DNA of 64,000 nucleotides from an uncultured delta proteobacterium (GTDB lineage Bacteria; Desulfobacterota; Syntrophorhabdia; Syntrophorhabdales; WCHB1-27). Location of the stretch: the NCBI GenBank assembly GCA_963825005.1, contig CAWGRP010000019.1:239742-303741 (forward strand), given 5' to 3'. The position numbers and the translations under genes are program-made. The notes under the pieces were generated by a model. That model worked only from the letters and a program-made list of their open reading frames with translations. It was not told the DNA's origin and made no database searches. Each line of letters starts with the position of its first letter. Positions within the stretch are counted from its first letter, which is position 1. Shown here piece by piece: positions 8,573 to 54,004 of the stretch.

Positions 8573-8738
8573 CTGGATTCCGGCGTCCGCCGGAATGACG
8601 GGAAGACCTGAAAGATGTTCATCTATTTTCGCAAGCAACCAGTACCAACTTGCAAATGTTCCAGTGCGTCACCCCGGCGGACGCCGGGGTCCAAAGTTAC
8701 TGCAAGACACGGGATTCCGGGCGGACGCGGAGTCCCAG
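8573..8738. repeat. Cluster of three REP-like hairpin units: 8573-8600 CTGGATTCCGGCgtcCGCCGGAATGACG, 8668-8695 GTCACCCCGGCggaCGCCGGGGTCCAAAG, 8711-8738 GGGATTCCGGGCggaCGCGGAGTCCCAG
   Basis: Same architecture as 1723-1799. Stem sequences differ between units but keep their complementarity. The cluster lies between the convergent GH57 and glgB genes. Confidence 0.7.
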
Positions 8739-8821
8739 GTGAGATCCTAATGTCTACCCAATAGTGGACTCCATAATAAACCGGTTATTTAATTTAAGGG
8801 TGACCCACGACCCATGACCGG

Positions 8822-14131: not shown

Positions 14132-14155
14132 CTTTTTCTCCAGGCATAGACATCC

Positions 14156-34608: not shown

Positions 34609-34625
34609 GGGATGGGGATAGCGGG

Positions 34626-35786: not shown

Positions 35787-35797
35787 AGGAGGGGTTG

Positions 35798-36946: not shown

Positions 36947-36960
36947 AGGGGTAACAATTT

Positions 36961-37052
36961 ATGCAGATGAAAGCTGATAAGAGCCAAGAGAGATGTTCGC
37001 AGATGCGTATGATCGTTCATCAAGGCTTTTATCCGCTCTTATCGGCGATGAA
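36961..37052. repeat. Family-4 repeat, short (termini-only) copy
   Basis: GCAGATGAAAGCTGATAAGAGCC...GGCTTTTATCCGCTCTTATCGGCGATGA. It creates the spurious N-terminal extension of ORF 36961..37509. Confidence 0.7.
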
Positions 37053-37104
37053 AAGCAGTGTCTTGCGAAAAGGGTTTGACACTGAAGCGAGGAGGGAGGA
37101 GATT

Positions 37105-37509
37105 TTGGAAAATCAAAGGGAAATAAAAATAATGGTTGCCAAACCTGGACTCGACGGCCACGACAGGGGCGCCAAAGTAGTGGCCCACGCGCTCAAGGAA
37201 GCCGGCCTGGAAGTGATCTATACAGGACTTCATAAGACGGTCGATCAGATTGTGAGAATCGCCATCCAGGAGGACGTGGACATTATCGGACTTTCGATCA
37301 TGAGCGGCGCGCACATTCCGATTGTCGAAAAGCTGATGAAGAAAGTGGAGCAGGAAGGGATACAGGACAAGATGGTAATCGTGGGAGGCGTGATCCCGAA
37401 TAAAGATATTGCCCGGCTCAAGGAGCTCGGCGTCTCCGGTGTCTTTCCCGGCGGCACGCCCTTTTCGGAAATCGTGACGTTCATAAAGGAACAGGTGAAA
37501 CCGGCGTAG
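37105..37509 (+). CDS. Acyl-CoA mutase small subunit (cobalamin-binding domain)
   Basis: B12-binding DxHxxG motif in VAKPGLDGHDRGAKVVA. TTG 37105 follows GGAGGGAGGA (37091-37100); ATG 37132 is an alternative start. Confidence 0.85.
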   Translation: MENQREIKIMVAKPGLDGHDRGAKVVAHALKEAGLEVIYTGLHKTVDQIVRIAIQEDVDIIGLSIMSGAHIPIVEKLMKKVEQEGIQDKMVIVGGVIPNKDIARLKELGVSGVFPGGTPFSEIVTFIKEQVKPA

Positions 37510-37548
37510 AAGAGCGGCCAAAAGGTCTTGTGACAAGCAAAGGACGAT

Positions 37549-37775
37549 TTCACCACAGAGGCACAGAGGTCACAGAGAAGTGCTCCACGGAGAACCGAAA
37601 TTATTCGTGTCCGAAACAGTGGAGATTCTGTTCCGGACACACACCGACGCTCCGCGTAGGTGTGGAAGGCATCTCGCCTCCCGCAGGGATGCGAGTGACC
37701 GGATATGGTCGTCTCCCCATATCCGGTCGAAACTACTTAGGGCTTCCTCTGTGTACTCTGTGCCTCCGTGGTGAA
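37549..37775 (+). repeat. Family-2 repeat, copy 1 (about 227 nt)
   Basis: Terminal inverted repeats CACCACAGAGGCACAGAG / CTCTGTGCCTCCGTGGTG and four internal hairpins. Collinear with 41261-41488. Confidence 0.85.
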
Positions 37776-37828
37776 TACAAGTAGTTTTCGAAGCCTGGCG
37801 AAAAGTCGGGCACGAGTAGGAGGATTGA

Positions 37829-39457
37829 ATGGGAGTTGCAAAATATACTAAGGATGAGAAAGATCAGATAGTCGATGTGACGCTTCAGTCGGGCATCCAT
37901 GTGAAGCCGCTCTACGGGCCCGAGGATCTGGAAAAGATCGGTTTTTCCTATGAGCGCGATCTCGCGGACCCCGGCACGTATCCGTTTACGAGGGGCATAC
38001 ACCGTCAAGGGTATCGCAGCCGCGCCTGGACAACGAGGCAGTACACGGGCTTCGGCACACCCTACGAGACGAATGAACGGTTCAAGCTGATGATCGCGCA
38101 TGGTCAGACCGGATTGAATGTGGCGTTCGATCTGCCTACCCAAATGGGCTATGACTCCGACGACCCGATCGCCGAAGGCGAAGTAGGCCGCGTAGGGATG
38201 GCAGTCGACTCGCTCAGGGATTTTGAAGTGGCATTCAAAGATATCAACCTGGCGAAGATAGGATCAGGGCTGACGATCAATGCGGTAGCATCCATCATGC
38301 TCGCGATGTACCAGGCTGTTGCCGAGAAATTCGGTTATAGTCGCGACGCAATATCGGCCACACCGCAGAATGATATCCTGAAAGAGATGATCGGACGCGG
38401 CTCGTGGATCTTCCCGGTAGAACCGGCGGTGAAGCTGATCGGCGACACCATTGAATATTCGATTGAGGCCCTTCCTCGCACAAACCCGGTCAGCGTCTGC
38501 GGCTACCACATCAGGGAATCGGGGGCAACGCCCGCGCAGGAGATCGGATACGCCATACTGATCGCCAACGCGTACATAGACAATGTGATCGCCAGAGGCT
38601 ACGACGTGGATGCGTTTGTCGGCCGCTTCTCTTTCAACTTCAACGTGTTCGGCAATATCTGGGAACAGGTGGCGAAATTCAGGGCAGGACGCAAACTCTG
38701 GGCGAGAAATCTCAAGGAAAAATACGGCGTCAAGAAAGATTCGAACATGTACTTACGGGGCCTCTTCGGCGGCGGAGGATACGGCCTCACGAAAGCTCAG
38801 CCCGAGAACAACATCATGCGCGGAGCCTATTACGCGCTTTCTGCCGCGCTCGCAGGAGCGCAGACTATAGCGCTCTGCAGCTATGATGAAGCCTACACCA
38901 TACCGACGCCGCATTCAGCCATCATTTCTCTGCGCACGCTGCAGCTTCTCATGGATGAGATAGGCCTGCGCGACACAGTCGATCCTCTGGCCGGAAGCTA
39001 CTTCATAGAGACGCTCACCAAAGAGATGGAGCAGAAGATCGAAGAAGAGATGGCTCAGATAGAGAAAGCGGGAGGAATCACACAGGCTGTGGCGACCGGT
39101 TACATTCAGAGGCTGGTTGCACGACAGGCCTACGAGTTCGAGAAAGGCATCCAATCAGGAGAGCTCCTCAAGGTCGGCGTGAACATCTATACCGACGAAC
39201 AACCGATGGACGTCGAACTGCACGAATACAACTGGGAATCGGCGGAAAAGCAGATGGAAGGGCTCAAGCAGGTGAAGCGGGAGAGGAATAACCGGGAAGT
39301 AACGCGCACGCTTGCAGCGCTGGAGCAGGCAACAAAAGAGGGTAAGAACGTCATGCCTTATCTCGTGGAATGCTGCAAAGCGTATGCAACGGTCGGCGAA
39401 ATGACGTCGATCTTCAGAAACATCTACGGAGAATTCGACGAGCCGAGTCTGTTCTGA
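37829..39457 (+). CDS. Methylmalonyl-CoA-mutase-family large (catalytic) subunit
   Basis: YPFTRGIH..GYRSRAWTTRQYTGFGTPYETNERFK....GQTGLNVAFDLPTQMGYDSDDPIAEGEVGRVGMAVDSL. Confidence 0.9.
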   Translation: MGVAKYTKDEKDQIVDVTLQSGIHVKPLYGPEDLEKIGFSYERDLADPGTYPFTRGIHRQGYRSRAWTTRQYTGFGTPYETNERFKLMIAHGQTGLNVAFDLPTQMGYDSDDPIAEGEVGRVGMAVDSLRDFEVAFKDINLAKIGSGLTINAVASIMLAMYQAVAEKFGYSRDAISATPQNDILKEMIGRGSWIFPVEPAVKLIGDTIEYSIEALPRTNPVSVCGYHIRESGATPAQEIGYAILIANAYIDNVIARGYDVDAFVGRFSFNFNVFGNIWEQVAKFRAGRKLWARNLKEKYGVKKDSNMYLRGLFGGGGYGLTKAQPENNIMRGAYYALSAALAGAQTIALCSYDEAYTIPTPHSAIISLRTLQLLMDEIGLRDTVDPLAGSYFIETLTKEMEQKIEEEMAQIEKAGGITQAVATGYIQRLVARQAYEFEKGIQSGELLKVGVNIYTDEQPMDVELHEYNWESAEKQMEGLKQVKRERNNREVTRTLAALEQATKEGKNVMPYLVECCKAYATVGEMTSIFRNIYGEFDEPSLF

Positions 39458-39463
39458 GAACTA

Positions 39464-39491
39464 CAGGGTCCAGGGTCCAGGGTCCAGGGTC
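39464..39491. repeat. Tandem heptamer array (CAGGGTC)x4
   Basis: Read directly from the sequence. It sits just after the mutase stop and is followed by GCTAGTAA/GCTGGCAA word repeats up to about 39570. Confidence 0.8.
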
Positions 39492-39575
39492 CGGGAATAG
39501 AAGAAGAAAGTATTAAGCTGGCAAGCCGGATAGCTAGTAAGCTAGTAAGCTGGCAAGCTAAGAGCTGAGGGCTGA

Positions 39576-40013
39576 ATGAAAATTCAAAAGATCGACCACA
39601 TCTGTTTTGCGGTAAAGGACCTCGAAAGAACAAAACAGATGTACAGCGATAACTTCGGTCTCCTGCCGGAAGTGGAGTACGTCGCCGAAGCGGAGCACAT
39701 AAAGGTGGCTCGTTACTACATCGGCGATGTGGCTGTGGAGCTGATGGAATCTACATCACCGGAGGGAGAGGTAGCAAAATTCATCAAGAAGAGAGGTGAG
39801 GGCGTCTTTCTCATCTCTTATAGGGTGGACGATCTCAAAGCGGCATTGACCGAACTCAAGGCGAAAGGTGCAGACCTGATCGATCAGGAACCGAGGGAGC
39901 TATTCGGCAATCGCTATGCATTCGTGCAGCGGCCGGACAAGCTTTGCGGCGTGCTCACCGAGCTTCTCGATGGAGAATTCGACAAGAGCAAAGTTCCGTT
40001 ACTGAAGAAGTAG
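39576..40013 (+). CDS. Methylmalonyl-CoA epimerase (VOC/glyoxalase-fold)
   Basis: MKIQKIDHICFAVKDLE...VELMESTSPEG.V.KFI.KRGEG..H..Y.V.D. Supported by the genomic context with the mutase. Confidence 0.8.
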   Translation: MKIQKIDHICFAVKDLERTKQMYSDNFGLLPEVEYVAEAEHIKVARYYIGDVAVELMESTSPEGEVAKFIKKRGEGVFLISYRVDDLKAALTELKAKGADLIDQEPRELFGNRYAFVQRPDKLCGVLTELLDGEFDKSKVPLLKK

Positions 40014-40072
40014 TTGATGTGTTTGCGGAAAAAGCATCGCACAAAAAAATTTGAACCGGCAAGGGGGTTACC

Positions 40073-41215
40073 ATGCGCGCGCTAGTGGTCGGCGGAACGG
40101 GAGGTATGGGTCAGGGTGTCGCCCGGGACCTCATCAAACAGGAGCAGATCAAGGACGTCATTCTGGGTGATATAAATATAGATCAGTCTCGCGTGCAGGA
40201 TAAGCTGCGCGATAGCAAAAAAGTATCGCTCAAGAAGATCGATGTAAACGATCATGGCGGCATGGTGGACGCAATCCGCGGGGCTGACGTTGTCATCAAC
40301 TGCGCAGGGCCATTCTACAAGACTGCGGTGGCGGTTGCCAGAGCGGCAATCGATGCGAAGGTCAACTACATAGATATTTGCGACGACTACGAAGCGACTG
40401 ACATTCTTTTCGCTTCTGACATTAATGATGCGGCCAGGAAAGCAGGGATCACCGTGCTGACGGGCATGGGATCGGATCCGGGAACCAACAACGTAATAGT
40501 CAAATGGTATGCGGATCATCTGGATAGCGTGGACGAGATTGCTTTGTTCTGGGTGGTGAGTATAGCCGAGCTCCGGGGCGCAGCCTGGGATCATGGCCTC
40601 CATATGATCATAGGTAAGATCCCCCAGTACCTGGATGGTAAACTGGAATATGTGGAAGGGGGAACCGGCGAGGAGACGGCGAAATTTCTCGAACCCCTGG
40701 GCGTCTGTGAGGTTCGCTACGTGGGTCATCCTCAGCCGCTCACGATACCCCGCTATATACCGGGTGTAAAAAGTGTTGTTATCAAGGGTGCCCTTATCCC
40801 GCTATGGGTGGACCAGCTGATTAAGGAGCAGAAAGAGACAGGCTTTCTCGGTAAAGAGCCGGTAGACGTGAAGGGTGCGCAGGTGACACCCTATGATCTG
40901 ACCCTGCGGCTCTGGGAAACTATTCCGATCGGCAGGGATAACGGGCCCGCAGCCTCCGGTCTCAAGGTCATCGTAAGAGGTAAGAGAAAAGGAGTGCAGG
41001 TAACCTACACCGCAGACATAGTGGGCAGGATGGCGCCCGGGACGGGTCTTCCCGCCTCTATCGCGGCTCTCATGATGGATGCGGGCGATGTCAAGGCGAA
41101 GGGCGTGGTGGCCCCGGAAGGCTGTATCGATCCCGGGAAATTCCTTACCGCATTGCTCCAGAGGGGTGCAAGGATACATCAAACGGAAACGATAACGTCC
41201 ATGCTCAGTGTGTAG
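40073..41215 (+). CDS. Saccharopine-dehydrogenase-family NAD(P)-binding protein
   Basis: Rossmann N-terminus ALVVGGTGGMGQGVARDL and ..VVINCAGPFYKT...YIDICDD. Confidence 0.75.
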   Translation: MRALVVGGTGGMGQGVARDLIKQEQIKDVILGDINIDQSRVQDKLRDSKKVSLKKIDVNDHGGMVDAIRGADVVINCAGPFYKTAVAVARAAIDAKVNYIDICDDYEATDILFASDINDAARKAGITVLTGMGSDPGTNNVIVKWYADHLDSVDEIALFWVVSIAELRGAAWDHGLHMIIGKIPQYLDGKLEYVEGGTGEETAKFLEPLGVCEVRYVGHPQPLTIPRYIPGVKSVVIKGALIPLWVDQLIKEQKETGFLGKEPVDVKGAQVTPYDLTLRLWETIPIGRDNGPAASGLKVIVRGKRKGVQVTYTADIVGRMAPGTGLPASIAALMMDAGDVKAKGVVAPEGCIDPGKFLTALLQRGARIHQTETITSMLSV

Positions 41216-41260
41216 TGGCCGGTGAATTTGTTAAACGTTTTATGAAAAAGGAAATGAAAA

Positions 41261-41488
41261 TTCTACCACAGAGGCACAGAGGGCACAGAGAAGTGCTCCA
41301 CGGAGAAAGAATAATTTCGTGTCCGGAACAGTGGAGATTCTGTTCCGGACACACACCGACGCTCCGCGTAGGTGTAGTAAGTACCTGTGCCCCGCAGGGG
41401 TGCAGGTGACCGGATATGGCCGTCTCCCCATATCCGGTCAGAAACTACTTAAGGCTTTCCTCTGTGTCCTCTGTGCCTCCGTGGTGAA
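41261..41488 (+). repeat. Family-2 repeat, copy 2
   Basis: Same orientation as copy 1 and collinear with it. Confidence 0.85.
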
Positions 41489-41526
41489 TGAAAATAACTG
41501 ACATGCCTTAGTCAAAGGAGCATGCT

Positions 41527-42786
41527 ATGAAAAGTGCTGAGAAACTGAACATTACACGAAGCCTCAAATTCTTCGACGATGCAACGAAACTGGTTCCCGG
41601 CGGAGTGCTCGGCGCCCGCAAGCCGGGCGATTTTATTCAGGGGGAATACCCGATATTTCTTGAATTCGGCAAGGGCGCCCATTTGACCGATGTTGACGGC
41701 AATGAGTTCATCGATTTCCTCTGCGGCTACGGCCCGATTATCCTGGGCTATAGAGAAGACGAGGTCGATGATGCCGTGATCAGGCAGATAAAAGAGAAGG
41801 GCTTCTGCTTTACCCTGACGCAGCCCTACCAGAATCAGCTCGCGCAAAGACTGACCGAACTCGTTCCCTGTTCGGAGATGACCATCTTTCTGAAGACCGG
41901 GTCGGACGCCACGACGGCGAGCGTCCGCATTGCACGTGCATTTACGAACCGCATCAAGGTGATGCGTTGCGGCTACCACGGGTGGCATGACTGGTCAGTA
42001 GAGATGAAGGGGGGCATTCCGGCGAAGCTGTACGAAGATGTGTACGAGTTCCGTTACAACAAGCTCGATCAGCTCGAAGAGCTGATGACAAAGCACGGCA
42101 CTGAGACCGCCGCCATCATCATGACTCCCTTCGGCCATCCGAACCATCAGAAAATGGAAGAGCCGAAACCCGGATTCCTGGAAGGGGTGAGGGCGATCGC
42201 CGACAGGTACGGAGCCGTTCTGGTCTACGATGAGATCCGCACCAACTTCAGGCTCAGCATGGGCGGCGCGCAAAAGCTCTATGGCGTCACTCCGGACCTG
42301 TCAGTCCTGGGGAAGGGCATGGCCAACGGCTACGCCATAAGCGCCGTCACCGGGAAAAGAGACGTTATGATGGCTGCAGCAAGCAAGCTTTTCATTTCTT
42401 CCACCTTCTTCCCCAACAGTGACGGTTACATCGCCGCGCTCAAGACGCTTGAGATCCTGGAGCGTGAGAAGGTAATTGACAATATATGGGAGAAAGGCGG
42501 CCGGTTCCTGCAGAAAATAAGGGCTATCATCGACAAATATGATGCTGCCGGAGCCGAACTGACCGGTGTTGCGCCCATGTTTTACATTACCTTCAAGAAG
42601 GATGAAGCCGATACGCACAAGGCCAGGCGTGATGCGTTCTACACGCAGCTCATCCGCAGGGGCATCTTCCTGCACCCGCACCACCATGGGTATATCTGTT
42701 ACAGGCACACCGAGAAGGATCTCGATACGACCATCGCGGCAATAGACGAATCCATGGCCTACGTGCAGGAAACGTACGCCAAGTGA
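41527..42786 (+). CDS. Class-III (GSA-aminomutase-like) PLP-dependent aminotransferase
   Basis: ..VPGGV.......G.YP.F...GKGAHL.DVDGNEFIDF..GYGP.ILGY, GSDAT..A.R.AR, and the PLP-Lys context VLGKGMANGY. Confidence 0.85.
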   Translation: MKSAEKLNITRSLKFFDDATKLVPGGVLGARKPGDFIQGEYPIFLEFGKGAHLTDVDGNEFIDFLCGYGPIILGYREDEVDDAVIRQIKEKGFCFTLTQPYQNQLAQRLTELVPCSEMTIFLKTGSDATTASVRIARAFTNRIKVMRCGYHGWHDWSVEMKGGIPAKLYEDVYEFRYNKLDQLEELMTKHGTETAAIIMTPFGHPNHQKMEEPKPGFLEGVRAIADRYGAVLVYDEIRTNFRLSMGGAQKLYGVTPDLSVLGKGMANGYAISAVTGKRDVMMAAASKLFISSTFFPNSDGYIAALKTLEILEREKVIDNIWEKGGRFLQKIRAIIDKYDAAGAELTGVAPMFYITFKKDEADTHKARRDAFYTQLIRRGIFLHPHHHGYICYRHTEKDLDTTIAAIDESMAYVQETYAK

Positions 42787-42789
42787 CCA

Positions 42790-43030
42790 GAGGGAAGACC
42801 GCCGCGGGCTAGGAAGATCGTTCGCGATGCTCACTAGGAAGACCGCCTTCGGCTAGGAAGATGGAAGAGAGAAACCTATATCTACTGAGACGGTACCAGC
42901 GGATGTTCGCTTTTGCTTCCTAGTCACGCCAAGGCGTGACGGTCTTCCTGGCGCGTAGCGCGATCTTCCCCCCTTCGGGGACTTCGCCTCTTCCTAGCCC
43001 TCCAGGTCCCCGCAAGGGGGGCAGCGGTCT
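42790..43030. repeat. Family-3 word repeat element, copy 1
   Basis: Multiple CTAGGAAGA(C/T)CG words in both orientations around the core GGAAGAGAGAAACCTATATCTACTG..ACCAGCGGATGTTCGCTTTTGCTTCCTAGTCACGCC. Collinear with 49056-49298. Confidence 0.8.
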
Positions 43031-43095
43031 TTTTCCATTTGACATCGGATATTGGTTCTATCTATAATAGGTCAGACCTATTAGCGGAGGTGTCT

Positions 43096-44262
43096 ATGAG
43101 CGGCTATCACAAAAGGGATTTTGACAATTTCCCGATGCATACGATCACAAGGGTCGACCGGCCCACGACGATCATACATGACAACGAGGTAAAGAGAGTC
43201 GATGAGCGCGACAGCGGCTTCAATAAAGCATCCGCGGGCCTGTACGGTCCCATCCTAGCCAAGGAGAGACCGCGCTTCGTCATGAAGCATCCCCTCTCAG
43301 GGGCACTCGGACAGATGCAGCTTTTTCTCAGGGATATCGTCGACGGCATGGTGGCGAAGCAAAAGGCTCCGATCCCGGAAGATCCTTCGATTCTGGCTCG
43401 CCACATCAAGGAGACGGCCTACTTCTTGAGGTCGGATGCCGTCGGTATCTGCGAGCTTCCCCCGTATGCAGTCTACACCCACAGCTTTCCTGACGGCGAG
43501 CCGGTGGAGTGCAATCACAAATATGCCATAGGCATTCTTATCGATCAGGACTATAGAACATCACATGCCACGAACGGTCATAACTGGATCAGCAACTCGA
43601 TGAGCTTCGTAGCCTATTCCGCATCCGGTTTTATCGCGTGTATTCTCGCCGAGTATATCCGGAGACTCGGTTATCCTGCAAGGGCGCATCACGCCCGTAA
43701 CTATCAGGTAGTCGTCCCCCCGATCCTTCTGTGGGCAGGCCTGGGCGAGATGAGCCGGATCGGCGACAGTGTGCTCCATCCTTTCATGGGGCCCCGTTTC
43801 AAGGCAGCGGTTGTGACGACCGATCTGCCCATGGCTATCGACAAGCCGATCGATTTCGGATTGCAGGATTTTTGCTCCAAGTGTAAGAAGTGCGCCCGCG
43901 AATGCCCGTCCGGTGCGCTCACCGATGGCGGCAAAGAGATATACAACGGCTACGAACACTGGCCGAGTAACATTCGCAAATGCACTACCATGCGCGTGGG
44001 GAACCAGCACGGCTCGGGCTGCGGCACCTGTATCAAGGCCTGTCCCTGGAATAAGCCCTATACGCCGTTTCACCGCGCGGTGGGCTGGGCCATGCGCCAT
44101 TCAGGCGCAGCGCGAAGCCTCGCCATCTGGGGTGACGATCTGATGGGTTACGGCAAGGCCCATCCGGAGGAGCAGTGGTGGCTCGATCTCGAAGAGATCG
44201 ACGGGGTGGTGCAATTACCAAGGAAGCACACAGGCAAACATCTATGGGCAGCGGACGAATAA
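43096..44262 (+). CDS. Reductive-dehalogenase (RdhA)-family protein, cytoplasmic type with no Tat signal
   Basis: Two Fe-S motifs, CSKCKKCARECP and C..(x11)..CGTCIKACPW. The start MSGYHKRD at ATG 43096 follows GGAGG. The ORF track starts at 43039. Confidence 0.75.
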   Translation: MSGYHKRDFDNFPMHTITRVDRPTTIIHDNEVKRVDERDSGFNKASAGLYGPILAKERPRFVMKHPLSGALGQMQLFLRDIVDGMVAKQKAPIPEDPSILARHIKETAYFLRSDAVGICELPPYAVYTHSFPDGEPVECNHKYAIGILIDQDYRTSHATNGHNWISNSMSFVAYSASGFIACILAEYIRRLGYPARAHHARNYQVVVPPILLWAGLGEMSRIGDSVLHPFMGPRFKAAVVTTDLPMAIDKPIDFGLQDFCSKCKKCARECPSGALTDGGKEIYNGYEHWPSNIRKCTTMRVGNQHGSGCGTCIKACPWNKPYTPFHRAVGWAMRHSGAARSLAIWGDDLMGYGKAHPEEQWWLDLEEIDGVVQLPRKHTGKHLWAADE

Positions 44263-44329
44263 TAACGGTTCGTTCTGAACACCTTCGTTATCGAGCTTTC
44301 TGGTAATTAGATGGGGACGAATAATCAAT

Positions 44330-44597
44330 GGACAGCCGGAAGAACTTTCGTGGAACGAGCATCGCGGGAGGTCTGGGGACCCGGCAGCGGAGATGACTGG
44401 TGCCGCGTATCCGTATGGGCGCGGCACGACGCGTTCTGACTCCGAGGCTTGAGTAAACGTAAAGAGAATAGTTTGCGAAGTGCCAGAGGGCAAATGATCA
44501 TGGGCAACGTTCGCAATGAGCGTCGAAGGAGTCGGAGCGTAGCACGGGTCAGACCGGGAGCGCCTCGCTCGTGGAACGAACAGTCTTCCGGCTGGCC
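44330..44597 (+). repeat. Family-1 repeat, subtype 1, solitary copy C
   Basis: Collinear with B3 and with the reverse complement of A1. Confidence 0.85.
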
Positions 44598-44621
44598 ATT
44601 TCCTTAACCGAAGGGGTGTTG

Positions 44622-45377
44622 ATGTTCGAACCGCTTGAAAAGAGGCGCTACTCTGAACAGATTGCTCATCTGATCCGGCAGCGCATACTGACCGAGAATC
44701 TTGAGAACGGCGCAAAGCTTCCCGCAGAACGGCAGCTCGCCACGGAACTGGGCGTGAGCCGCTCCGTGGTCAGGGAGGCCCTGTGCATGCTTGATGTCTC
44801 TGGCTACGTGAGCATGAAGAAGGGGCCGGGCGGCGGTATATTCGTGTCGCAGGTCTACCATAAACCGATCAGTGATTCTCTGAAAAACCTCGCTGTTAAC
44901 GGCCAGATCACCGTGGATCATCTCTTTGACGTGCGCCTCCAGATCGAGCCGTTCATGGCGTATGACGCGGCCCGCCATGCAACGAAGGCACACATCAGAG
45001 GTCTGCAGGAGCTGATGGCTGAGGCACGTCAGTGCCTCGATGACGCAGCATCGCTGAAGCAGAAGAACATACTCTTTCACATCCTTCTCGGTGAAGCCTC
45101 GGCCAATCCGGTCTCTGAGATGTTCATGAAATCAATCGCGGAGATCCTCAACGACGTTGCTTACAAGTTTTTGGATCTCTCGTGCGAGCGCATTTTCTTT
45201 AACACACACGGAAAAATTCTGAAGCTCGTTGCCGACCGGAAGGCACGGGAGGCTATGAGACTGGTGAAGGAAGACATTCTCGACGTCAGAAAAAGGCTGA
45301 GCAGAGCCTTGAAAAAAGGCGACACGGTGCGGACCCTGTCGACCACTTCACTCACTAAGGGGGCTGAGATCGTATGA
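44622..45377 (+). CDS. GntR-family transcriptional regulator (FadR/FCD subfamily)
   Basis: wHTH LPAERQLATELGVSRSVVREAL plus a helical FCD-like C-terminal domain. ATG 44622; the ORF-track N-terminal extension runs into repeat C. Confidence 0.85.
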   Translation: MFEPLEKRRYSEQIAHLIRQRILTENLENGAKLPAERQLATELGVSRSVVREALCMLDVSGYVSMKKGPGGGIFVSQVYHKPISDSLKNLAVNGQITVDHLFDVRLQIEPFMAYDAARHATKAHIRGLQELMAEARQCLDDAASLKQKNILFHILLGEASANPVSEMFMKSIAEILNDVAYKFLDLSCERIFFNTHGKILKLVADRKAREAMRLVKEDILDVRKRLSRALKKGDTVRTLSTTSLTKGAEIV

Positions 45378-46396
45378 AAGATCGCGTCTGGTTACAACTG
45401 ATCGTCCTGACCTTTATCGCAAGCTTCGCATTCAGTGTGCATCCTGTTTTCGCTCAAGAGGTGATCACGCTCCGGTATGCGCATTTCATGCCGCCGCCTA
45501 CAGCACAGGCTATCAATTCAGCAGAGTGGTGCAAGGAGGTGGAGAAAAGGACCAACGGGAAAGTGAAGATAACCTTTTACCCGGGCTCCACCCTGATGCC
45601 TGCGCCCCAGACGTACGACTCGGTTGTAAAAGGGATCGCCGATATCGGCTGGTCCATCATGAGTTACACAAGGGGCAAATTCCCCCTCACCGAAGTGATC
45701 GATCTTCCTCTCGGCTACAAGAGCGGCTACGTTGCAACAAAGCTTATCAATGCCTATTACGACAAATTCAAACCGAAGGAGTTCGATGAGACAAAGGTGC
45801 TGTATCTCCATGCCCATGGCCCCGGCATCCTGACAACAAAGAAAGCCGTAAATAAACTTGATGACCTGAAGGGAATGAAGATACGGTCTACCGGCTTGAG
45901 CGCAAAAATAGTGCAGGCGCTCGGCGCGGCACCGGTCGGCTTGCCGATCACCGAAACGTATGACGCTCTTTCAAAAGGCGTGGCCGAGGGTGTGTTGATG
46001 CCGGTAGAAGGGCTTCACCAGTGGAAGCTTGCCGAGGTAACCAAATTCACAACGGAGAACTACGGCTCGGCCTACTCGACCGGCTTTTTCTGCGTCATGA
46101 ACAAGAGCAAGTGGAACGCTCTGCCTCCGGATATTCAGAAGACCATCGAGGCGATCAATCTGGAGTGGATAGAGAAGACAGGCAAGCTCTGGGATACCAT
46201 CGATGTTGAAGGCAAGGATTGGGCAATAAAGCAGGGGCACAAATTCATTCAGCTGCCGAAGGAAGAAGACGCGCGCTGGAGCGAGAGAATGCGTCCTATC
46301 CTGGATGACTACGTGAAAGCGATGAAGGAGAAAGGTCTGCCCGGAGAGCAGTCTTTGAAATTCTGCATGGATTATTTGAAGGCTAACCAGAAATAG
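45374..46396 (+). CDS. TRAP-transporter solute-binding protein (DctP family)
   Basis: Signal peptide, then LRYAHFMPP......W...VEK.TNGKVKITFYPG..L. No DctQ or DctM gene is present anywhere in the window. Confidence 0.8.
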   Translation: MKDRVWLQLIVLTFIASFAFSVHPVFAQEVITLRYAHFMPPPTAQAINSAEWCKEVEKRTNGKVKITFYPGSTLMPAPQTYDSVVKGIADIGWSIMSYTRGKFPLTEVIDLPLGYKSGYVATKLINAYYDKFKPKEFDETKVLYLHAHGPGILTTKKAVNKLDDLKGMKIRSTGLSAKIVQALGAAPVGLPITETYDALSKGVAEGVLMPVEGLHQWKLAEVTKFTTENYGSAYSTGFFCVMNKSKWNALPPDIQKTIEAINLEWIEKTGKLWDTIDVEGKDWAIKQGHKFIQLPKEEDARWSERMRPILDDYVKAMKEKGLPGEQSLKFCMDYLKANQK

Positions 46397-46418
46397 CGAT
46401 GTGAGGGAGGAGGAAGCT

Positions 46419-47600
46419 ATGAGCGGCTATCATAAACGGGATTGGGAAACATTCCCGATGCACAAGCTCAAGAGAGTCGATAGACCGACGACCTTGATCA
46501 ACGATGAGAAGGTCGCCCGGGTGCGGGAGCGGGAAAGCGGCTTTCATAAAGCCGCTGCGGGTGATTATGGTCCCGTGCTCGTAAGGGAGTTCAGACGCTT
46601 TGTGCCGAAGCAGCCGATATCGGGCGCGCTCACGTGGATGAGGAATGCAATGAGACCTCTGGTCGACGGCATGGTCGCTGCCCAGAAGGCTCCTATTCCA
46701 ACGGACCCGGCAGCGCTCACCCGTCACGTCAAAGAAACCGCCTATTTCCTGAGGGCGGACGCAGTGGGCGTGTGTGAACTGCCGCGTTATGCTATTTACA
46801 GCCATAAGTTCGACTTCATGAAACCGGAAGCAGGAGAGCAACCGGTCGAGCTGGATCATAAGTATGCCATTACCGTGCTCATCGATCAGGACTACAGAAC
46901 ATCGCAGGCCTATTCAGGCAGCGATTGGATCAGCAACGCGATGAGCATGATGTCGTATGCCACCTCAGGTTTCATCGCGATCATCCTCGCCGACTACATC
47001 AGGAGGCTCGGCTATCCCGCTAAAGCGCACTACGCGCCCTTCTATGATGTGGTGCTGCCGCCTCTCATACTGCTCTCCGGCCTCGGCGAGATGAGCAGAA
47101 TCGGCGATTCGGTGCTCCACCCCTTTCTCGGGCCGCGATTCAAAGGGGCTGTGGTGACGACCGATCTTCCGCTTCTTGCGGACAAGCCTATCGATTTCGG
47201 CCTTCAGGATTTCTGTTCGAAGTGTAAGAAGTGCGCCCGTGAGTGTCCGAGCGGCGCCATAAGCGACGGCGGCAAGGAGATGTTCAACGGCTACGAGAAA
47301 TGGCCGATGGACAAAAAGAAGTGTACCGGTATGCGCGTCGGCAATCAGAGAGGTTCAGGCTGCGGCACGTGCATCAAGGTCTGTCCCTGGAGCAAGCCGT
47401 ACACGCCATTCCACAGGGCGGTAGGATGGAGCATGCGACACTCAGGGCTGGCCAGGAGCCTTGCGATCTGGGGAGACGACCTGATGGGCTACGGCAAGCC
47501 TGACTACAGCAGAAAGTGGTGGTTCGATCTCGAAGATGTGGCAGGAGACGGCATCTTAAAGATCCCCGCGAACAGGAAAAGCGAGTTCGAAGAGAGGTGA
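46419..47600 (+). CDS. Reductive-dehalogenase (RdhA)-family protein, cytoplasmic type; paralog of 43096..44262
   Basis: Same N-terminus MSGYHKRDW and the same Fe-S motifs CSKCKKCARECP and CGTCIKVCPW. By eye it is similar to paralog 1 along the whole length. Confidence 0.75.
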   Translation: MSGYHKRDWETFPMHKLKRVDRPTTLINDEKVARVRERESGFHKAAAGDYGPVLVREFRRFVPKQPISGALTWMRNAMRPLVDGMVAAQKAPIPTDPAALTRHVKETAYFLRADAVGVCELPRYAIYSHKFDFMKPEAGEQPVELDHKYAITVLIDQDYRTSQAYSGSDWISNAMSMMSYATSGFIAIILADYIRRLGYPAKAHYAPFYDVVLPPLILLSGLGEMSRIGDSVLHPFLGPRFKGAVVTTDLPLLADKPIDFGLQDFCSKCKKCARECPSGAISDGGKEMFNGYEKWPMDKKKCTGMRVGNQRGSGCGTCIKVCPWSKPYTPFHRAVGWSMRHSGLARSLAIWGDDLMGYGKPDYSRKWWFDLEDVAGDGILKIPANRKSEFEER

Positions 47601-51218: not shown

Positions 51219-51413
51219 GGGTCACGGGGTCACGGGTCACGTAGAAACCCGAATACAATTATGTGAAACACCTGCAGAACGCACCGTTTAACTGCAACTG
51301 ATACTCGCACATAATTGGTTAGCTCTTCTCGCCGTGACAAGCGAAGGCTTTTTGGCGGGTTCTAGCTTTCATTTCATTGACTGGCCCCGTGACCCGTGAC
51401 CCAGGACCCGGTC
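51219..51413. repeat. About 195-nt element bounded by inverted heptamer arrays: (GGGTCAC)n at 51219-51241 and (GTGACCC)n-like at 51385-51413
   Basis: GGGTCACGGGGTCACGGGTCACG ... CCCCGTGACCCGTGACCCAGGACCCGGTC, read directly from the sequence. Confidence 0.7.
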
Positions 51414-52043
51414 AGCTATGTGTTATACTTGCACCGATGGTTCGCGACCCTTTCCATCGGCAATCTTCGCCTGCCTCAGCCGTTTTTTCTTGCGCCGCTT
51501 GCGGGCGTGAGTGATCTGACTTACAGGCTCATCAGCCGCTCTTTCGGCGTTACGCTGGCATTCACGGAGATGGTCAGCGCCCGGGCTTTGAAGTATGGCA
51601 ACAAGAGGTGCCGGGATATGCTCGTAAGCGCTGATGCGGACCGGCCGCTCGGAATACAATTGGTTGCCGGAGATCAGGAGGACATCCTTTCTGCTCTTGA
51701 AGTGCTCGAACAATACCGGTTCGACGTGATCGACCTTAATGCCGCCTGCCCTGTATCGAAGATCGTTCGCAGAGGGGAAGGGGCAGGCCTTCTCAAAGAG
51801 CCTCAACGACTCCAGAAGCTCGCGAGCGCTCTGGTTCACAAGTCAGGTAAGCCTGTCACGCTGAAGATACGGGCCGGTTGGGATGCGGCTTCCATCAATG
51901 CGCCGGAAGTCGCAAAGATGGCTGAGGACGCGGGCGTGGCTGCGGTTTGCGTTCACGGACGGACTAAGGCCCAGGGCTATGACGGGAGAGTCGATTACGG
52001 AGTGATCAGAAAAGTGAAAGAAGCCGTGGCATCCCGGTCATAG
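51396..52043 (+). CDS. dus: tRNA-dihydrouridine synthase, N-terminal part (frameshifted gene)
   Basis: ..FFLAPLAGVSDLTYRLISRSFG.....EMVSA.AL, DLNAACP, and C..VHGRT..Q.Y.G..DY. The frame is lost after VKEAV near 52027. Confidence 0.8.
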   Translation: MTQDPVSYVLYLHRWFATLSIGNLRLPQPFFLAPLAGVSDLTYRLISRSFGVTLAFTEMVSARALKYGNKRCRDMLVSADADRPLGIQLVAGDQEDILSALEVLEQYRFDVIDLNAACPVSKIVRRGEGAGLLKEPQRLQKLASALVHKSGKPVTLKIRAGWDAASINAPEVAKMAEDAGVAAVCVHGRTKAQGYDGRVDYGVIRKVKEAVASRS

Positions 52044-52107
52044 GCACAGGCGACGTATTTTCAGGTGAACTTGCCATGAAAATGTTCGCGAGACAGGGTG
52101 CGACGGG

Positions 52108-52461
52108 GTGGCAGTCGCCCGCGGTTCTATGGGTAACCCCTGGATCTTCAGAGAGATAGCCGAGTTGCTGCATGATGGAACTGCGCCGGCGAGGCCGAGC
52201 AAGGATGAAGTCATTTCTACGATGAGAGACCATCTTAATCTATCAATGACTCTTCTCGGGGAAACGCTGGCGGTTCTGACCTTCCGCAAGTTCTTTGTCT
52301 GGTATAGCCATGGTTTCGCCAAGGTGAGGCCGTTGCGTACCAAAGCCTTGCAAGCACGATCTCTTGAAGAGATGCTGGGCGTGATCGAAGAGCTGCGCGC
52401 CTTAGGACATTTCATATATCGCAGATCAGGACGGATAACGGCTTGTCGATCAAGATCGTAA
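52108..52461 (+). CDS. dus: tRNA-dihydrouridine synthase, C-terminal part
   Basis: ..VARGSMGNPWIFREI... The missing IPVIGTGDVFSGELAMKMFARQGA segment is encoded at 52030-52100 in the third frame, so two frameshifts separate the parts. Confidence 0.75.
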   Translation: MAVARGSMGNPWIFREIAELLHDGTAPARPSKDEVISTMRDHLNLSMTLLGETLAVLTFRKFFVWYSHGFAKVRPLRTKALQARSLEEMLGVIEELRALGHFIYRRSGRITACRSRS

Positions 52462-52916: not shown

Positions 52917-53996
52917 TTACTCTACTTTTTTCCATTCCATCACGGGTTTGCCGTCTACCCGCTTAACAAAAATTGCCTTACCGTCAAGCACCGGATCAGT
53001 CAGAGGATAATCCGGCCTGTTGTGGAGTGCCCGCGTTTCTTTCCGTTCCCTCGCTGCCAGAAAGACAAGCTCTCCCAAGTCAAGCAGGTTCAGTGTTTCG
53101 AGCGCTCGGGTGAGCTCCCAGCGATTTCGCGCAACCATCGATGACGCTGCTTTCTCTTTCAGCCGCCTCACGTAGCTCAGGCCGGCTGACATCAGTGTCT
53201 CGGTCCGGACGAGCCCGACATAGTCCTGCATGATCTGCTGTAGCGCAATGTTTGTCTCTTTCCAGTCCGGACCTTGCTGGCGGCTGAGCATGTCCTGGAT
53301 CATACTGCCTTTTTCCTCGACATACGCCCCTGGTATCGCTTCCGGAGCGGCGACGCCCCGTGCAAACGTCGCGGCGCTATGGCCGGCAATCCAGCCGTAT
53401 GTGGCCGCGGGCCCTATACTCACGATCGACTCGTCACCGGCGGCGTAGAGACCTTTAACCGATGTCTCGGCCTTCTCGTTAATCCATATCTTTGCCTCAG
53501 GATAGATGTGATACGTGCCGAATTCAACGGGATGCTTACGCAGGTCGACCTTCTCGTCTTTCAGGTAGTTTATCATTGCCGTGAGTCCCTCGTGGACAAA
53601 GGCTTCCATCATATACGCGTAATCCTCCTCGGATATACCGCGGCAGTCCATGTAGACCGGCCCTCTGCCTGATTTGAGATAATCTTCGAGGATGGTGCTC
53701 CTTGCCTCCATCGTCATGTCGCCATACCTTCGGTCAGGCTTTGTCACGTAGGGTCCGATCGGTTTTCCCTGCGGATCCCTCAAGACGCCGACCCAGGTAG
53801 CCTGTCCGTATCGGCCAAAATAGCGGGGACCCATGTGACGTTTTGGGCTTTCGGGGCCCACGAGGGTGGCTCCGGCCCTGTAGGTCATAGCTCGACCATC
53901 GCCTGTAAGTGAAAGGCACCCGGGAGTGCTTGCCATCCAGCCCGGCACCGGCGAGGGATAGAGCCGCTCGACCACTCCCGTGCGCCACAATGACAC
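52917..53996 (-). CDS. FAD-dependent oxidoreductase (AprA / fumarate-reductase-flavoprotein-like), C-terminal part
   Basis: ..LTGDGRAMTYRAGATLVGPE......GP.....YG... and ..GLYAAGDES.. are typical of AprA/FrdA-like flavoproteins. Confidence 0.7.
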   Translation of the reverse strand: MSLWRTGVVERLYPSPVPGWMASTPGCLSLTGDGRAMTYRAGATLVGPESPKRHMGPRYFGRYGQATWVGVLRDPQGKPIGPYVTKPDRRYGDMTMEARSTILEDYLKSGRGPVYMDCRGISEEDYAYMMEAFVHEGLTAMINYLKDEKVDLRKHPVEFGTYHIYPEAKIWINEKAETSVKGLYAAGDESIVSIGPAATYGWIAGHSAATFARGVAAPEAIPGAYVEEKGSMIQDMLSRQQGPDWKETNIALQQIMQDYVGLVRTETLMSAGLSYVRRLKEKAASSMVARNRWELTRALETLNLLDLGELVFLAARERKETRALHNRPDYPLTDPVLDGKAIFVKRVDGKPVMEWKKVE

Positions 53997-54004
53997 TCTT
54001 TGCT

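Follow-up and report, generated by a model that had tools for sequence, protein, structure and literature searches.

Two short, Tat-less reductive dehalogenase homologs flanking a GntR regulator and a TRAP binding protein: a candidate module for the dehalogenation of phenolic acids

The window (the whole 64-kb stretch of DNA that was analysed) contains two paralogous genes of the reductive dehalogenase (RdhA) family, hereafter referred to as RdhA1 and RdhA2, which flank a GntR/FCD regulator and a DctP-family protein, all on the same strand. This arrangement had been reported in the first-pass annotation of the sequence, and ORF and Pfam annotation reproduced both the positions of the four ORFs and the placing of GntR and DctP between the two paralogs. 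The features are as follows.

43039..43068, plus strand: sigma-70-type promoter, TTGACA-18 nt-TATAAT, matching the consensus at 12/12 positions, 5′ of RdhA1
43065..43083, no strand assigned: perfect 19-bp palindrome, TAATAGGTC-A-GACCTATTA, overlapping the −10 box; candidate GntR/FCD operator
43096..44262, plus strand: RdhA1, 388 aa, predicted short-form cytoplasmic reductive dehalogenase homolog
44327..44600, no strand assigned: multicopy repeat element of ~274 nt with 34-nt inverted repeats at both ends, between RdhA1 and GntR
44622..45377, plus strand: GntR/FCD regulator, 251 aa, FadR-type ligand domain
45374..46396, plus strand: DctP-family TRAP solute-binding protein, 340 aa
46419..47600, plus strand: RdhA2, 393 aa, paralog of RdhA1

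RdhA1 and RdhA2 are 70% identical over 383 aligned residues and have the N-terminus MSGYHKRD in common. The start of DctP overlaps the stop of GntR by 4 nt, the end of DctP is separated from the start of RdhA2 by 22 nt, and a GGGAGG ribosome-binding site lies 8 nt 5′ of RdhA2. In four public metagenome runs, the repeat element between RdhA1 and GntR is covered at 3–6 times the depth of the sequence on either side and shows many loose ends, and the corresponding spacer in two related loci (L003 and L006) measures no more than about 80 nt; the element is an insertion and lies outside the ancestral operon. No RNA runs holding an rdhA gene of the window were found.

The TTGACA box and the −10 region are kept 5′ of the RdhA1 orthologs, whose upstream regions are otherwise only ~40% alike. 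The 19-bp palindrome occurs once in the window (0.01 expected), and its core, AATAGGTCNGRCC, was found in 12 of the 99 fetched loci, in each case just 5′ of an RdhA1-type gene. The regulator matches PF00392 (3.5e-19) and PF07729 (1.8e-15), and its orthologs (53–87% identical) lie 3′ of RdhA1-type genes in L001, L003, L006, L010, L020, L024, L071, L086, and L096; in L002/21, L023, and L026/27, the operator motif is present while an adjacent GntR gene is absent. From these positions, we infer that the GntR protein may bind the palindrome as a repressor.

An HMM search, which the first-pass annotation had proposed, gave TIGR02486 ("reductive dehalogenase") scores of 192 and 196 bits for the two RdhAs, above the curated NCBIfam cut-off of 160 bits, and there was no match to PF13486 in either protein. 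The pair of RdhA-type Fe-S motifs noted earlier is present in both: the first cluster motif is CSKCKKCARECP, and the second is C-x12-CGTCIK(A/V)CPW, whose spacing had been given, by a minor error, as C-x11. In RdhA1, the [4Fe-4S] ligand motifs are C260/263/266/270 and C296/309/312/316. Neither a Tat-like motif nor a hydrophobic segment was found in RdhA1 or RdhA2 with either possible start codon, and the start codon is fixed by homologs of 379–393 aa that cover 97–100% of the query. Between 41 and 50 kb, the only ORF of at least 40 aa with more than one hydrophobic segment encodes a TauE permease, at 49.6 kb, and Pfam annotation of the flanking genes revealed no RdhC- or RdhK-type gene. Thus, the earlier claims that a twin-arginine signal, a nearby RdhB anchor, and a nearby RdhC/K-type regulator are all missing hold. 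Of the 108 related genes, a single one carries a hydrophobic segment at its N-terminus and a single one an RR motif; no small multi-TM ORF recurs across the related loci, and RdhA1 and RdhA2 cluster separately from the Tat-bearing sequences. Judged by sequence, RdhA1 and RdhA2 are soluble, cytoplasmic, anchor-less RdhA-family proteins.

Proteins of this kind are not a new type, being already known from genomes since 2016–2025. Short RdhAs without Tat or RdhB in anaerobes were described by Jochum 2018 (PMC6129605) and by Wasmund 2016 (PMC4959651), and Han 2025 (PMC12219181) gave them the name "simplified cytosolic type". The simplified cytosolic type and the DEH-C11/Desulfobacula Tol2 clade of the two latter reports consist of proteins of ~395 aa from Desulfobacterota and Chloroflexota without Tat, TM helices, RdhB, or the vestigial domain; they were placed as the sister group to NpRdhA/BhbA and considered unlikely to serve as terminal reductases (PMC12219181, PMC4959651). 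The RdhA proteins of the window show every feature listed there. The two reports concern marine sediments and cold seeps, and the neighbours that they name are IclR/MarR regulators and genes for beta-oxidation and galactose; their accessible parts describe neither the combination of GntR with DctP nor two paralogs side by side in one locus nor a promoter/operator as in the window.

The top relative in a phmmer search of the PDB was NpRdhA (E 1.5e-122; query residues 10–381 on chain residues 259–633), which is 44–45% identical over its catalytic half, has both [4Fe-4S] motifs in common with the window RdhAs, and likewise lacks a Tat signal, RdhB, and a fused reductase. Structure prediction, also suggested in the first-pass annotation, yielded an AF2 model (pLDDT 90.4) with a TM-score to NpRdhA of 0.91–0.93; the model has the same fold as the cobalamin-binding catalytic half of NpRdhA. 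They differ in that NpRdhA has ~700 aa, its 250-residue N-terminal vestigial domain being missing from the window RdhAs. The source of NpRdhA is a marine, aerobic alphaproteobacterium; the window host would be an anaerobe of soils and wetlands. QueG, a B12 and two-[4Fe-4S] enzyme, belongs to the same superfamily, but membership in its family was rejected (TIGR00276 only 23–28 bits against a cut-off of 200) and the kinship is far (PDB E 3e-5; TM 0.37–0.39 with the AF2 model); the "QueG-like chemistry" considered at first is therefore without support.

In NpRdhA, Ser422, Lys488, and Arg552 bind the phenolic hydroxyl of the substrate, and Tyr426 donates a proton (PMC7565698). These residues are kept in both paralogs (S170, Y174, K236, and R300 in RdhA1; S176, Y180, K242, and R306 in RdhA2) and in essentially all of the 30 clade members, one partial sequence being gapped at R552; in the respiratory-like remainder of the sequences, position 488 is mostly Arg and position 552 mostly Trp. 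The hydrophobic half of the pocket is unlike that of NpRdhA in every examined clade member, with F290 replaced by Gly, P311 by Val (Gly in two sequences), and A419 by Asn, so that the substrate need not be 3,5-dihalo-4-hydroxybenzoate. Since NpRdhA position 423 is Phe in RdhA1 and Met in RdhA2, the two paralogs probably cover different substitution patterns.

DctP, a predicted secreted (periplasmic) binding protein, matches PF03480 (3.3e-48) and also NF037995, and has a signal-peptide-like N-terminus (…HPVFA/QE) with one hydrophobic segment at residues 4–22. Entries 7NR2 and 7NSW are, we presume, hydroxycinnamate-binding TarP proteins. The closest solved relatives of DctP are the Desulfovibrio SBPs 4N6D and 4PGN/4NAP; the latter, Dde_0634, is a DctP-family protein and a reported indole-3-acetate binder, and ranks with the best of the solved matches (E 3e-50). 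In contrast to such TRAP aromatic-acid binders, the DctP lineage of the window lacks adjacent DctQM genes. A tblastn search of the 64-kb window with DctQ, DctM, and fused DctQM of related loci gave a best E of 0.16, in agreement with the earlier statement that the permease partners are absent from it, and neither a CoA ligase, a ferredoxin, nor a reductase was found there. In the related loci, DctP orthologs at least 62% identical are never followed by DctQM, and the DctPs with DctQM directly 3′ are only 33–48% identical to that of the window.

The gene order RdhA1–GntR–DctP–RdhA2 recurs in L006. RdhA2 orthologs (86–88% identical) were found in L006, L023, L026/27, and L099, and lie 3′ of DctP in the same order where the context was resolved (L006, L023, and L026/27). 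In L016/17/18, a DctM–DctQ–ECH–ECH–CoA ligase–DctP cluster is divergent to GntR–RdhA–RdhA. Counted over 74 non-redundant related loci, neighbours include TRAP parts (21 loci), a CoA ligase (17), an Amidohydro_2 decarboxylase-type gene (12), GntR (11), and a three-subunit Mo-hydroxylase like 4-hydroxybenzoyl-CoA reductase (5); UbiD genes also occur. Half of the related loci have no informative neighbour, many of these contigs being short (median 8 ORFs). This recurrence beside TRAP and aromatic-acid genes supports the earlier suggestion that an organic acid is delivered or sensed through the TRAP protein.

Characterised catabolic RdhAs offer a comparison. BhbA (Comamonas sp. 7D-2) and JtRdhA (Jhaorihella thermophila) are self-sufficient and cytoplasmic, with ortho-halogenated hydroxy-aromatic acids imported for catabolism as substrates, and ortho-halogenated phenols are the substrates of every characterised catabolic RdhA (PMC10463259). 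Part of what defines these enzymes is a vestigial duplicate domain at the N-terminus; the window RdhAs have neither this nor the reductase domains of the long catabolic enzymes, and a separate electron donor would therefore be needed. That short RdhAs without fused domains can be active dehalogenases follows from Ros_A3X954 (Roseobacter sp.), a short Tat-less cytoplasmic RdhA that debrominates 2,6-dibromophenol (PMC13101508, 2026), although it belongs to another subfamily, with a PF13486 match and the cluster motifs CDICTKCADACP and CAICMRVCP.

Our preferred reading, to which we assign a probability of roughly 0.6, is that the locus may be a GntR-controlled module by which ortho-halogenated phenolic acids are taken up and then dehalogenated in the cytoplasm. 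The host would be a strict anaerobe and appears to be a relative of the Syntrophorhabdales; the halogenated substrate is deduced from the four to five conserved residues and the gene neighbours. DctP would capture an aromatic carboxylate with a halogen ortho to the hydroxyl group, for example 3-chloro- or 3,5-dihalo-4-hydroxybenzoate or related phenylacetates or cinnamates, and pass it to DctQM membrane subunits whose genes would lie in another part of the genome. The ligand or its product would release the GntR repressor from the palindrome. RdhA1 and RdhA2 would then remove the halogen via Co(I) cobalamin, supplied with electrons by a separate low-potential donor, for instance ferredoxin, by way of the two clusters, and the dehalogenated hydroxy-acid would enter the benzoyl-CoA route after CoA ligation. 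The non-respiratory, catabolic-type character proposed in the first-pass annotation is thus upheld by the kinship to NpRdhA, the conserved pocket, and the lack of Tat, TM, and RdhB features here and across the related genes.

An overlapping but rather unlikely alternative is that the same dehalogenation serves mainly as an electron sink re-oxidising ferredoxin or NAD(P)H. A syntrophic or fermentative host is plausible (the top genome hits carry the labels Syntrophorhabdales, Syntrophobacterales, or delta proteobacterium), and the literature counts cofactor re-oxidation among the functions that cytoplasmic RdhAs might have (PMC6129605, PMC12219181). In about 10 of the 74 loci, a 2-hydroxyacid dehydrogenase and a 364-aa Fe-S protein, a pair that could be a redox-feeding module, lie within 6 genes of rdhA, often directly downstream. 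However, no such gene is present in the window, and the tight linkage of the relatives to aromatic-acid uptake and CoA-activation genes indicates use of the carbon skeleton.

It is improbable that CoA ligation comes first and that the RdhAs work on halogenated hydroxyaryl-CoA thioesters instead of free acids. An AMP-binding CoA ligase does lie within 2 genes of rdhA in 8 of the 74 non-redundant loci, directly 5′ on the same strand in L048, L052, L062, L071, and L073, and the clade-wide change of F290 to Gly enlarges the pocket; nevertheless, we know of no RdhA that uses a CoA thioester, the window has no ligase, and the GntR/FCD and DctP partners are typical free-acid sensors and binders. Similarly doubtful is the removal of a non-halogen group (hydroxyl or methoxyl) from lignin-derived phenolic acids by B12/Fe-S reductases. 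The family is very abundant in metagenomes from apparently pristine soil, wetland, peat, and permafrost, but natural organohalogens are common in such soils. The neighbours are general phenolic-acid catabolism genes and not halogen-specific ones, the invariant Asn in place of Ala419 adds a polar pocket contact, and the superfamily includes one non-dehalogenating member, QueG; against this, the residues for halophenol turnover (Ser/Tyr/Lys/Arg) are conserved as a complete set, the window RdhAs are far from QueG, and the enzymes characterised on their side of the family are all dehalogenases (PMC10463259). Organohalide respiration with a membrane partner and an export signal encoded or supplied elsewhere is hardly credible: RdhA family membership itself and the distant rdhB of some genomes would allow it, but the Tat motif and TM helix are absent with either start codon, homolog lengths fix that codon, a small multi-TM ORF neither lies nearby nor recurs, and the proteins group apart from Tat-bearing sequences.

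The respiratory PceA/PceA2 type (PDB 4UQU, 8Q4H) has the superfamily fold and cofactor motifs in common with the window RdhAs but is Tat-exported and RdhB-held, and it matches them more weakly (E 1e-29 and 2e-22; TM 0.62–0.69). NpRdhA is kept monomeric by a vestigial copy of the cobalamin-binding core at its N-terminus (PMC10463259). Because this domain is missing from RdhA1 and RdhA2, they are probably dimers, the likely quaternary state also suggested by PceA/PceA2, which are homodimers without it.

The unit under study lies on the plus strand and consists of four genes, an upstream promoter with a palindrome, and an element bounded by inverted repeats:

43039–43068: sigma-70 promoter TTGACA-18-TATAAT (12/12 consensus positions), 30 nt upstream of RdhA1
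43065–43083: perfect 19-bp palindrome TAATAGGTCAGACCTATTA, overlapping the −10 box
43096–44262, plus strand: RdhA1, 388 aa
44327–44600: inverted-repeat-bounded element of 274 nt with 34-nt arms, between RdhA1 and GntR
44622–45377, plus strand: GntR regulator (PF00392, 68.7 bits; PF07729, 57.9 bits)
45374–46396, plus strand: DctP binding protein (PF03480, 164.9 bits; NF037995, 105.9 bits, cut-off 50)
46419–47600, plus strand: RdhA2, 393 aa, with a GGGAGG ribosome-binding site in front

The ATG of the DctP gene overlaps the stop codon of the GntR gene, 22 nt separate the DctP gene from RdhA2, and a convergent BON-domain gene bounds the unit at 47613. RdhA1 and RdhA2 share 70% identity. Alternative longer ORFs begin at TTG 43039 (RdhA1) and GTG 46401 (RdhA2); homologs of 379–393 aa cover 97–100% of the ATG-started proteins and, at the level of homology, confirm the ATG starts. 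All four genes are intact and full length in comparison with their homologs. ORF calling returned the same gene positions as the first-pass annotation, the reading of which was correct in outline; the sole slip in its description is the spacing of the second cluster motif, which was given as C-x11-CGTC and is actually C-x12-CGTC.

Both RdhA proteins pass the curated cut-off (160.35 bits) of TIGR02486, the NCBIfam model for reductive dehalogenases, with 191.8 and 195.6 bits; the match spans profile positions 86–314 and leaves the N-terminal (signal) part of the profile unmatched. The [4Fe-4S] motifs (CxxCxxCxxxCP, then C-xn-CxxCxxxCP) are formed in RdhA1 by C260/263/266/270 and C296/309/312/316, and alignment A1 shows no variation at these eight cysteines; in alignment A2 each is invariant or conserved to at least 90%. 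Pfam matched only ferredoxin-type cluster (Fer4) families, and PF13486 ('Dehalogenase') gave no match at E ≤ 0.01; this miss reflects the bias of the model to respiratory enzymes and is no argument against RdhA membership. The best PDB match is the catabolic dehalogenase NpRdhA (E 1.5e-122), restricted to its residues 259–633, the cobalamin-binding catalytic half; the runners-up are the respiratory enzyme PceA (E 1e-29) and QueG (E 3e-5). An AlphaFold2 model of RdhA1 (pLDDT 90.4) superposes on NpRdhA with a TM-score of 0.91–0.93 and an rmsd of 1.7–2.8 Å over approximately 375 columns, as compared with TM-scores of 0.62–0.69 for PceA-type respiratory enzymes and 0.37–0.39 for QueG. The modelled protein has the fold of the cobalamin-binding core seen in solved RdhAs, and binding of the cofactor is predicted. 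The QueG-like chemistry suggested by the first-pass annotation was not borne out: besides the low TM-scores, the two proteins reach just 28.1 and 23.4 bits with TIGR00276, the cut-off of which is 200. The HMM check that it had proposed places both proteins among the RdhAs, with a Pfam match to Fer4 and none to PF13486, and the structure prediction does so for RdhA1.

A scan of 1.84 billion representatives gave 302 clusters at E ≤ 1e-30. The nearest neighbors were a mixture of short (370–425 aa) and long (650–1090 aa) proteins, the latter matching from about residue 260 onward, which is the NpRdhA/BhbA architecture; lower in the list are proteins of about 450 aa, and several of these bear Tat signals. 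In a neighbor-joining tree of the shared core, which is midpoint-rooted without bootstrap support and is used for grouping and not for branching order, RdhA1 and RdhA2 group with Dehalococcoidia sequences in a clade of short proteins without Tat signals; the long cytosolic clade and the Tat-bearing, respiratory-like remainder lie outside it.

No twin-arginine motif or hydrophobic stretch was found in the first 60 residues of RdhA1 or RdhA2 with either start codon, and no rdhB-like small ORF for a 2–3 TM anchor occurs between 41 and 50 kb in the window. Pfam annotation of the flanking genes revealed no RdhC/RdhK-type gene, ferredoxin or reductase near the unit. The related loci contain 108 full-length related genes, of which one encodes a hydrophobic segment at the N terminus and one an RR motif; small two-TM ORFs adjoin these genes sporadically, and no rdhB recurs. 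The earlier description of two cytoplasmic, non-respiratory proteins lacking a Tat signal, an RdhB anchor and an rdhC/K-type regulator therefore stands, and the closest solved relative, NpRdhA, agrees with it.

A vestigial N-terminal duplicate of the cobalamin-binding core is the distinguishing feature of the characterized catabolic RdhAs; that of NpRdhA mimics the dimer partner, so that NpRdhA is a monomer (PMC10463259). This domain of about 250 residues is missing from RdhA1 and RdhA2: the alignment is confined to NpRdhA residues 259–633, and the upstream DNA consists of promoter and repeat sequence that does not code for protein. Past the second cluster region only about 40 residues follow, and Pfam gave no match to a flavin or 2Fe-2S domain such as a C-terminal PDOR reductase would have. 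Because the vestigial domain and the fused NADPH reductase module are both absent, RdhA1 and RdhA2 would be expected to act as dimers and to need a separate low-potential electron donor. In 11 related loci (L038, L041, L045, L046, L055, L056, L059, L066, L068, L071 and L084), a 2-hydroxyacid dehydrogenase and/or a 364-aa protein with a C-terminal two-[4Fe-4S] domain is encoded downstream of the short rdhA on the same strand, often directly 3′ of it. This pair is a candidate electron-supply module for reductase-less RdhAs; the N-terminal 280 residues of the 364-aa protein match no Pfam family.

Like NpRdhA, BhbA (Comamonas sp. 7D-2) and JtRdhA (Jhaorihella thermophila), RdhA1 and RdhA2 are cytoplasmic, without a Tat signal or RdhB. 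BhbA and JtRdhA carry a fused NADPH reductase module, whereas NpRdhA and the two window proteins do not. By analogy, RdhA1 and RdhA2 would work as NpRdhA does, but they miss its vestigial domain and are therefore not filed with the NpRdhA/BhbA/JtRdhA group. Han et al. (2025, PMC12219181) describe a 'simplified cytosolic type': it is about 395 aa long, lacks the vestigial domain, Tat signal, TMH and RdhB, groups with the cytosolic and not the respiratory clades, and comes from Desulfobacterota or Chloroflexota. Every feature stated for this type is found in RdhA1 and RdhA2 (388 and 393 aa). They also fit the Tat-less, RdhB-less clade of Wasmund et al. (2016, PMC4959651; also Jochum 2018, PMC6129605). 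The characterized short Tat-less debrominase of Roseobacter (PMC13101508) belongs to another subfamily. RdhA1 and RdhA2 are thus of an already known kind of RdhA, and an assay report for any member of their clade was not found in the literature.

The active site was compared using NpRdhA numbering. In the substrate complexes of NpRdhA, Ser422, Lys488 and Arg552 bind the phenolic hydroxyl, Tyr426 is the proton donor, and F290, F310, P311, A419 and M423 form a hydrophobic wall (PMC7565698). The equivalents of S422/Y426/K488/R552 are S170/Y174/K236/R300 in RdhA1 and S176/Y180/K242/R306 in RdhA2, and this set is kept across 30 clade members, except that one partial sequence has a gap where R552 would be. 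The respiratory-like remainder has, for the most part, Arg at position 488 and Trp at position 552. The wall is altered: F290 is replaced by Gly and A419 by Asn in 30/30 members, and P311 by Val in 28/30, and position 423 separates the RdhA1 type (Phe) from the RdhA2 type (Met). All characterized catabolic RdhAs act on ortho-halogenated phenols (PMC10463259). In our reading of these residues, RdhA1 and RdhA2 may retain the ortho-halophenol recognition mode of those enzymes; in its other parts the substrate probably differs, and RdhA1 and RdhA2 probably show a slight difference from each other as well.

For the gene neighborhoods, 99 related loci (L001–L099) were collected from metagenomes, their ORFs were called and clustered, and recurrent clusters were named by Pfam. 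The arrangement in which the two RdhAs flank GntR and DctP, reported for the window by the first-pass annotation, recurs in identical order in L006. Parts of it occur elsewhere: RdhA1-DctP-RdhA2 without the regulator in L023 and L026/27, RdhA1-GntR in L001, L003, L010, L020 and L024, and RdhA1-DctP in L002/21. More distant loci have other combinations. In L016–18, DctM-DctQ-ECH-ECH-CoA ligase-DctP is divergent from GntR-RdhA-RdhA; the L016 pair was rejected as the same paralog pair, since the tree puts its first gene in a different, more distant subfamily. L036 carries GntR-RdhA-DctP-DctQ-DctM, and L071 carries CoA ligase-RdhA-GntR-DctP-DctQ-DctM-FeS protein. The series TAXI-DctQM-Amidohydro_2-RdhA-2-hydroxyacid dehydrogenase-FeS protein is found, whole or partial, in L046, L050 and L065–68. 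A three-subunit molybdenum hydroxylase with the composition of 4-hydroxybenzoyl-CoA reductase accompanies a CoA ligase and RdhA in L048, L052 and L026/27, and UbiD-family genes occur in L039 and L047.

In the 74 non-redundant loci that contain a close homolog (just 8 ORFs in the median; many contigs are short, the redundancy filter is simple and the ORF calls are mechanical), TRAP parts were found in 21, CoA ligases in 17, Amidohydro_2 in 12, GntR in 11 and Mo-hydroxylases in 5; 38 loci have at least one of them. Neighbors of these kinds are the usual equipment with which anaerobes take up and activate phenolic acids, and they provide the main support for a catabolic (carbon-skeleton) role and an aromatic carboxylate substrate. 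The earlier proposal of an organic-acid substrate tied to the TRAP protein is also strengthened by the recurrence of TRAP parts and CoA ligases. Separately, eight loci (L074, L075, L080, L082, L085, L088, L090 and L092) have a 662-aa AMP-binding ligase and a 315–350-aa protein with a weak methyltransferase match, followed by a short rdhA.

The search of the 64-kb window bore out that neither DctQ nor DctM is encoded in it. Wherever the contig extends beyond an ortholog of the window DctP with at least 62% identity (L002/21, L006, L023, L026/27, L060, L086 and L089), no DctQM comes after it, so that the orphan state is not an accident of the window edge. The DctPs with DctQM directly after them are only 33–48% identical to the window DctP. 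The lineage would either share membrane subunits encoded elsewhere or act as a sensor. Among solved proteins, the window DctP is closest to the Desulfovibrio binding proteins 4N6D and 4PGN/4NAP (Dde_0634), the latter with indole-3-acetate as the reported ligand; by analogy, an aromatic acid would fit as the ligand of the window DctP.

The 19-bp palindrome is unique in the window (0.01 chance matches expected). Upstream regions that otherwise share just about 40% of their sequence retain the promoter and the core AATAGGTC-N-GRCC, and the core is found in 12 of the 99 loci, always just upstream of an RdhA1-type gene. A palindrome centered on GT-N3-AC over the −10 box is the expectation for a GntR-family repressor. 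The window GntR has an N-terminal winged helix and a C-terminal FCD domain, the make-up of the FadR (FCD) subfamily, and it is predicted to bind this candidate operator; some loci with the motif but no adjacent GntR gene weaken the pairing. No second operator or promoter was found in front of GntR, and the RdhA1-GntR spacer is at most about 80 nt in L003 and L006, so that the ancestral unit was probably a single autoregulated operon. The window spacer measures 360 nt because the 274-nt element resides there. In four public soil/wetland runs, this element has 3–6 times the depth of its flanks and many contig ends at its borders, indicating that it is multicopy, and it is missing from related loci. 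No cobalamin riboswitch or other known RNA was detected in the long spacers at Rfam gathering scores.

To account for these observations, we propose, with a probability of roughly 0.6, that a halogenated phenolic acid would be bound by DctP and imported, would de-repress the operon via GntR, and would lose the halogen ortho to its hydroxyl through RdhA1 or RdhA2, a separate donor supplying the electrons; the product would then enter a CoA-dependent aromatic pathway. A syntroph could use the same chemistry chiefly as a sink for electrons, which is compatible with this account and has a modest chance of being the better description. There is a slim chance that RdhA1 and RdhA2 form a heterodimer, each in the place of the vestigial domain, and/or that the clade reductively removes non-halogen groups; either would mean a quaternary arrangement or a reaction class that is new for the RdhA family. 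Removal of a non-halogen group as such, which may include dehydroxylation or demethoxylation of lignin-derived phenolic acids, would explain why the clade abounds in peat, wetland and permafrost soils that are unpolluted, and why Asn invariably takes the place of Ala419; we regard it as improbable, and equally so an action of the RdhAs on CoA thioesters. Respiration with a distant anchor deserves scarcely any credence, since Tat and rdhB are lacking here and no rdhB recurs beside the 108 related genes.

Cytoplasmic anchor-less RdhA genes, first noticed in 2016, are among the commonest rdhA-like genes in anoxic sediments and soils. New here are the conserved RdhA1-(GntR)-DctP-RdhA2 arrangement, its promoter and candidate operator, the consistently orphan DctP lineage, and a systematic association with phenolic-acid genes among Syntrophorhabdales-like bacteria of soils and wetlands. 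Three independent substrate handles are thereby available: the binding protein, a ligand-responsive repressor with its operator (a predicted pairing), and two enzymes with a phenol-binding pocket. Such a set is unusually complete for a widespread enzyme class, and all three can be screened by routine methods. If the preferred account of phenolic-acid dehalogenation is true, syntrophic aromatic degraders would be tied to the turnover of natural organohalogens in soils of peat, wetland and permafrost, and small single-domain dehalogenases would be gained for enzyme work.

The best genome matches (87–93% identity) are MAGs labelled Syntrophorhabdales, Syntrophobacterales or 'delta proteobacterium', and the named database matches are Syntrophorhabdaceae, Syntrophorhabdales (phylum Thermodesulfobacteriota) or Deltaproteobacteria; the host placement that they give is approximate. 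Metagenomes from soil, wetland and permafrost contain near-identical DNA. Beside or near window-type genes, L006 (12823–13974), L016 (8656–9864) and L002 (19373–20626) hold additional Tat-less rdhA genes that belong to more distant subfamilies (34–37% identity), so Syntrophorhabdales-like organisms hold several cytoplasmic RdhA lineages.

Other features of the window are as follows:

33643–42786: B12-related acyl-CoA cluster, adjoining the rdhA unit
37553–37771 and 41266–41484: copies of a 219-nt repeat, 93% identical, with inverted repeat CCACAGAGGCACAGAGG and internal hairpins
6082–8521: GH57/DUF3536 gene, split in two ORFs
10726–14131: TreS-maltokinase gene, split in two ORFs
51396–52461: dihydrouridine synthase gene, split in two ORFs
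52917–54598: fumarate-reductase-like flavoprotein gene (FAD_binding_2 + Succ_DH_flav_C), split in two ORFs

The B12-related cluster encodes MeaB, two acyl-CoA dehydrogenases, split methylmalonyl-CoA-mutase-type subunits, an epimerase, a saccharopine-dehydrogenase-like protein and a class-III aminotransferase resembling glutamate-1-semialdehyde aminomutase. A functional link of the rdhA unit to it was rejected, since the cluster is absent beside the RdhA1 orthologs (L001–L006 and L010); that RdhA1 has a promoter of its own, preceded by repeat-rich DNA in which terminator-like hairpins lie, also counts against the link. The 219-nt intergenic element looks like a MITE-type repeat; one copy lies between the genes for the small and large methylmalonyl-CoA mutase subunits and the other before the aminotransferase gene. 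The spacer after the latter gene (42793–42963) is repeat-rich, containing GGAAGACCGCC…GGCTAGGAAGAT twice and 24-nt inverted arms (42822–42845 and 42940–42963), and contigs break there in public runs. The split genes suggest frameshifts from sequencing or assembly errors, or pseudogenes, and, since there are several, sequence errors are possible in the window. The fumarate-reductase-like flavoprotein family is intact near rdhA genes in L019 and L055. Finally, the region 6082–16153 carries a GlgE-type alpha-glucan/trehalose set consisting of GH57, branching enzyme, TreS-maltokinase and GlgE.
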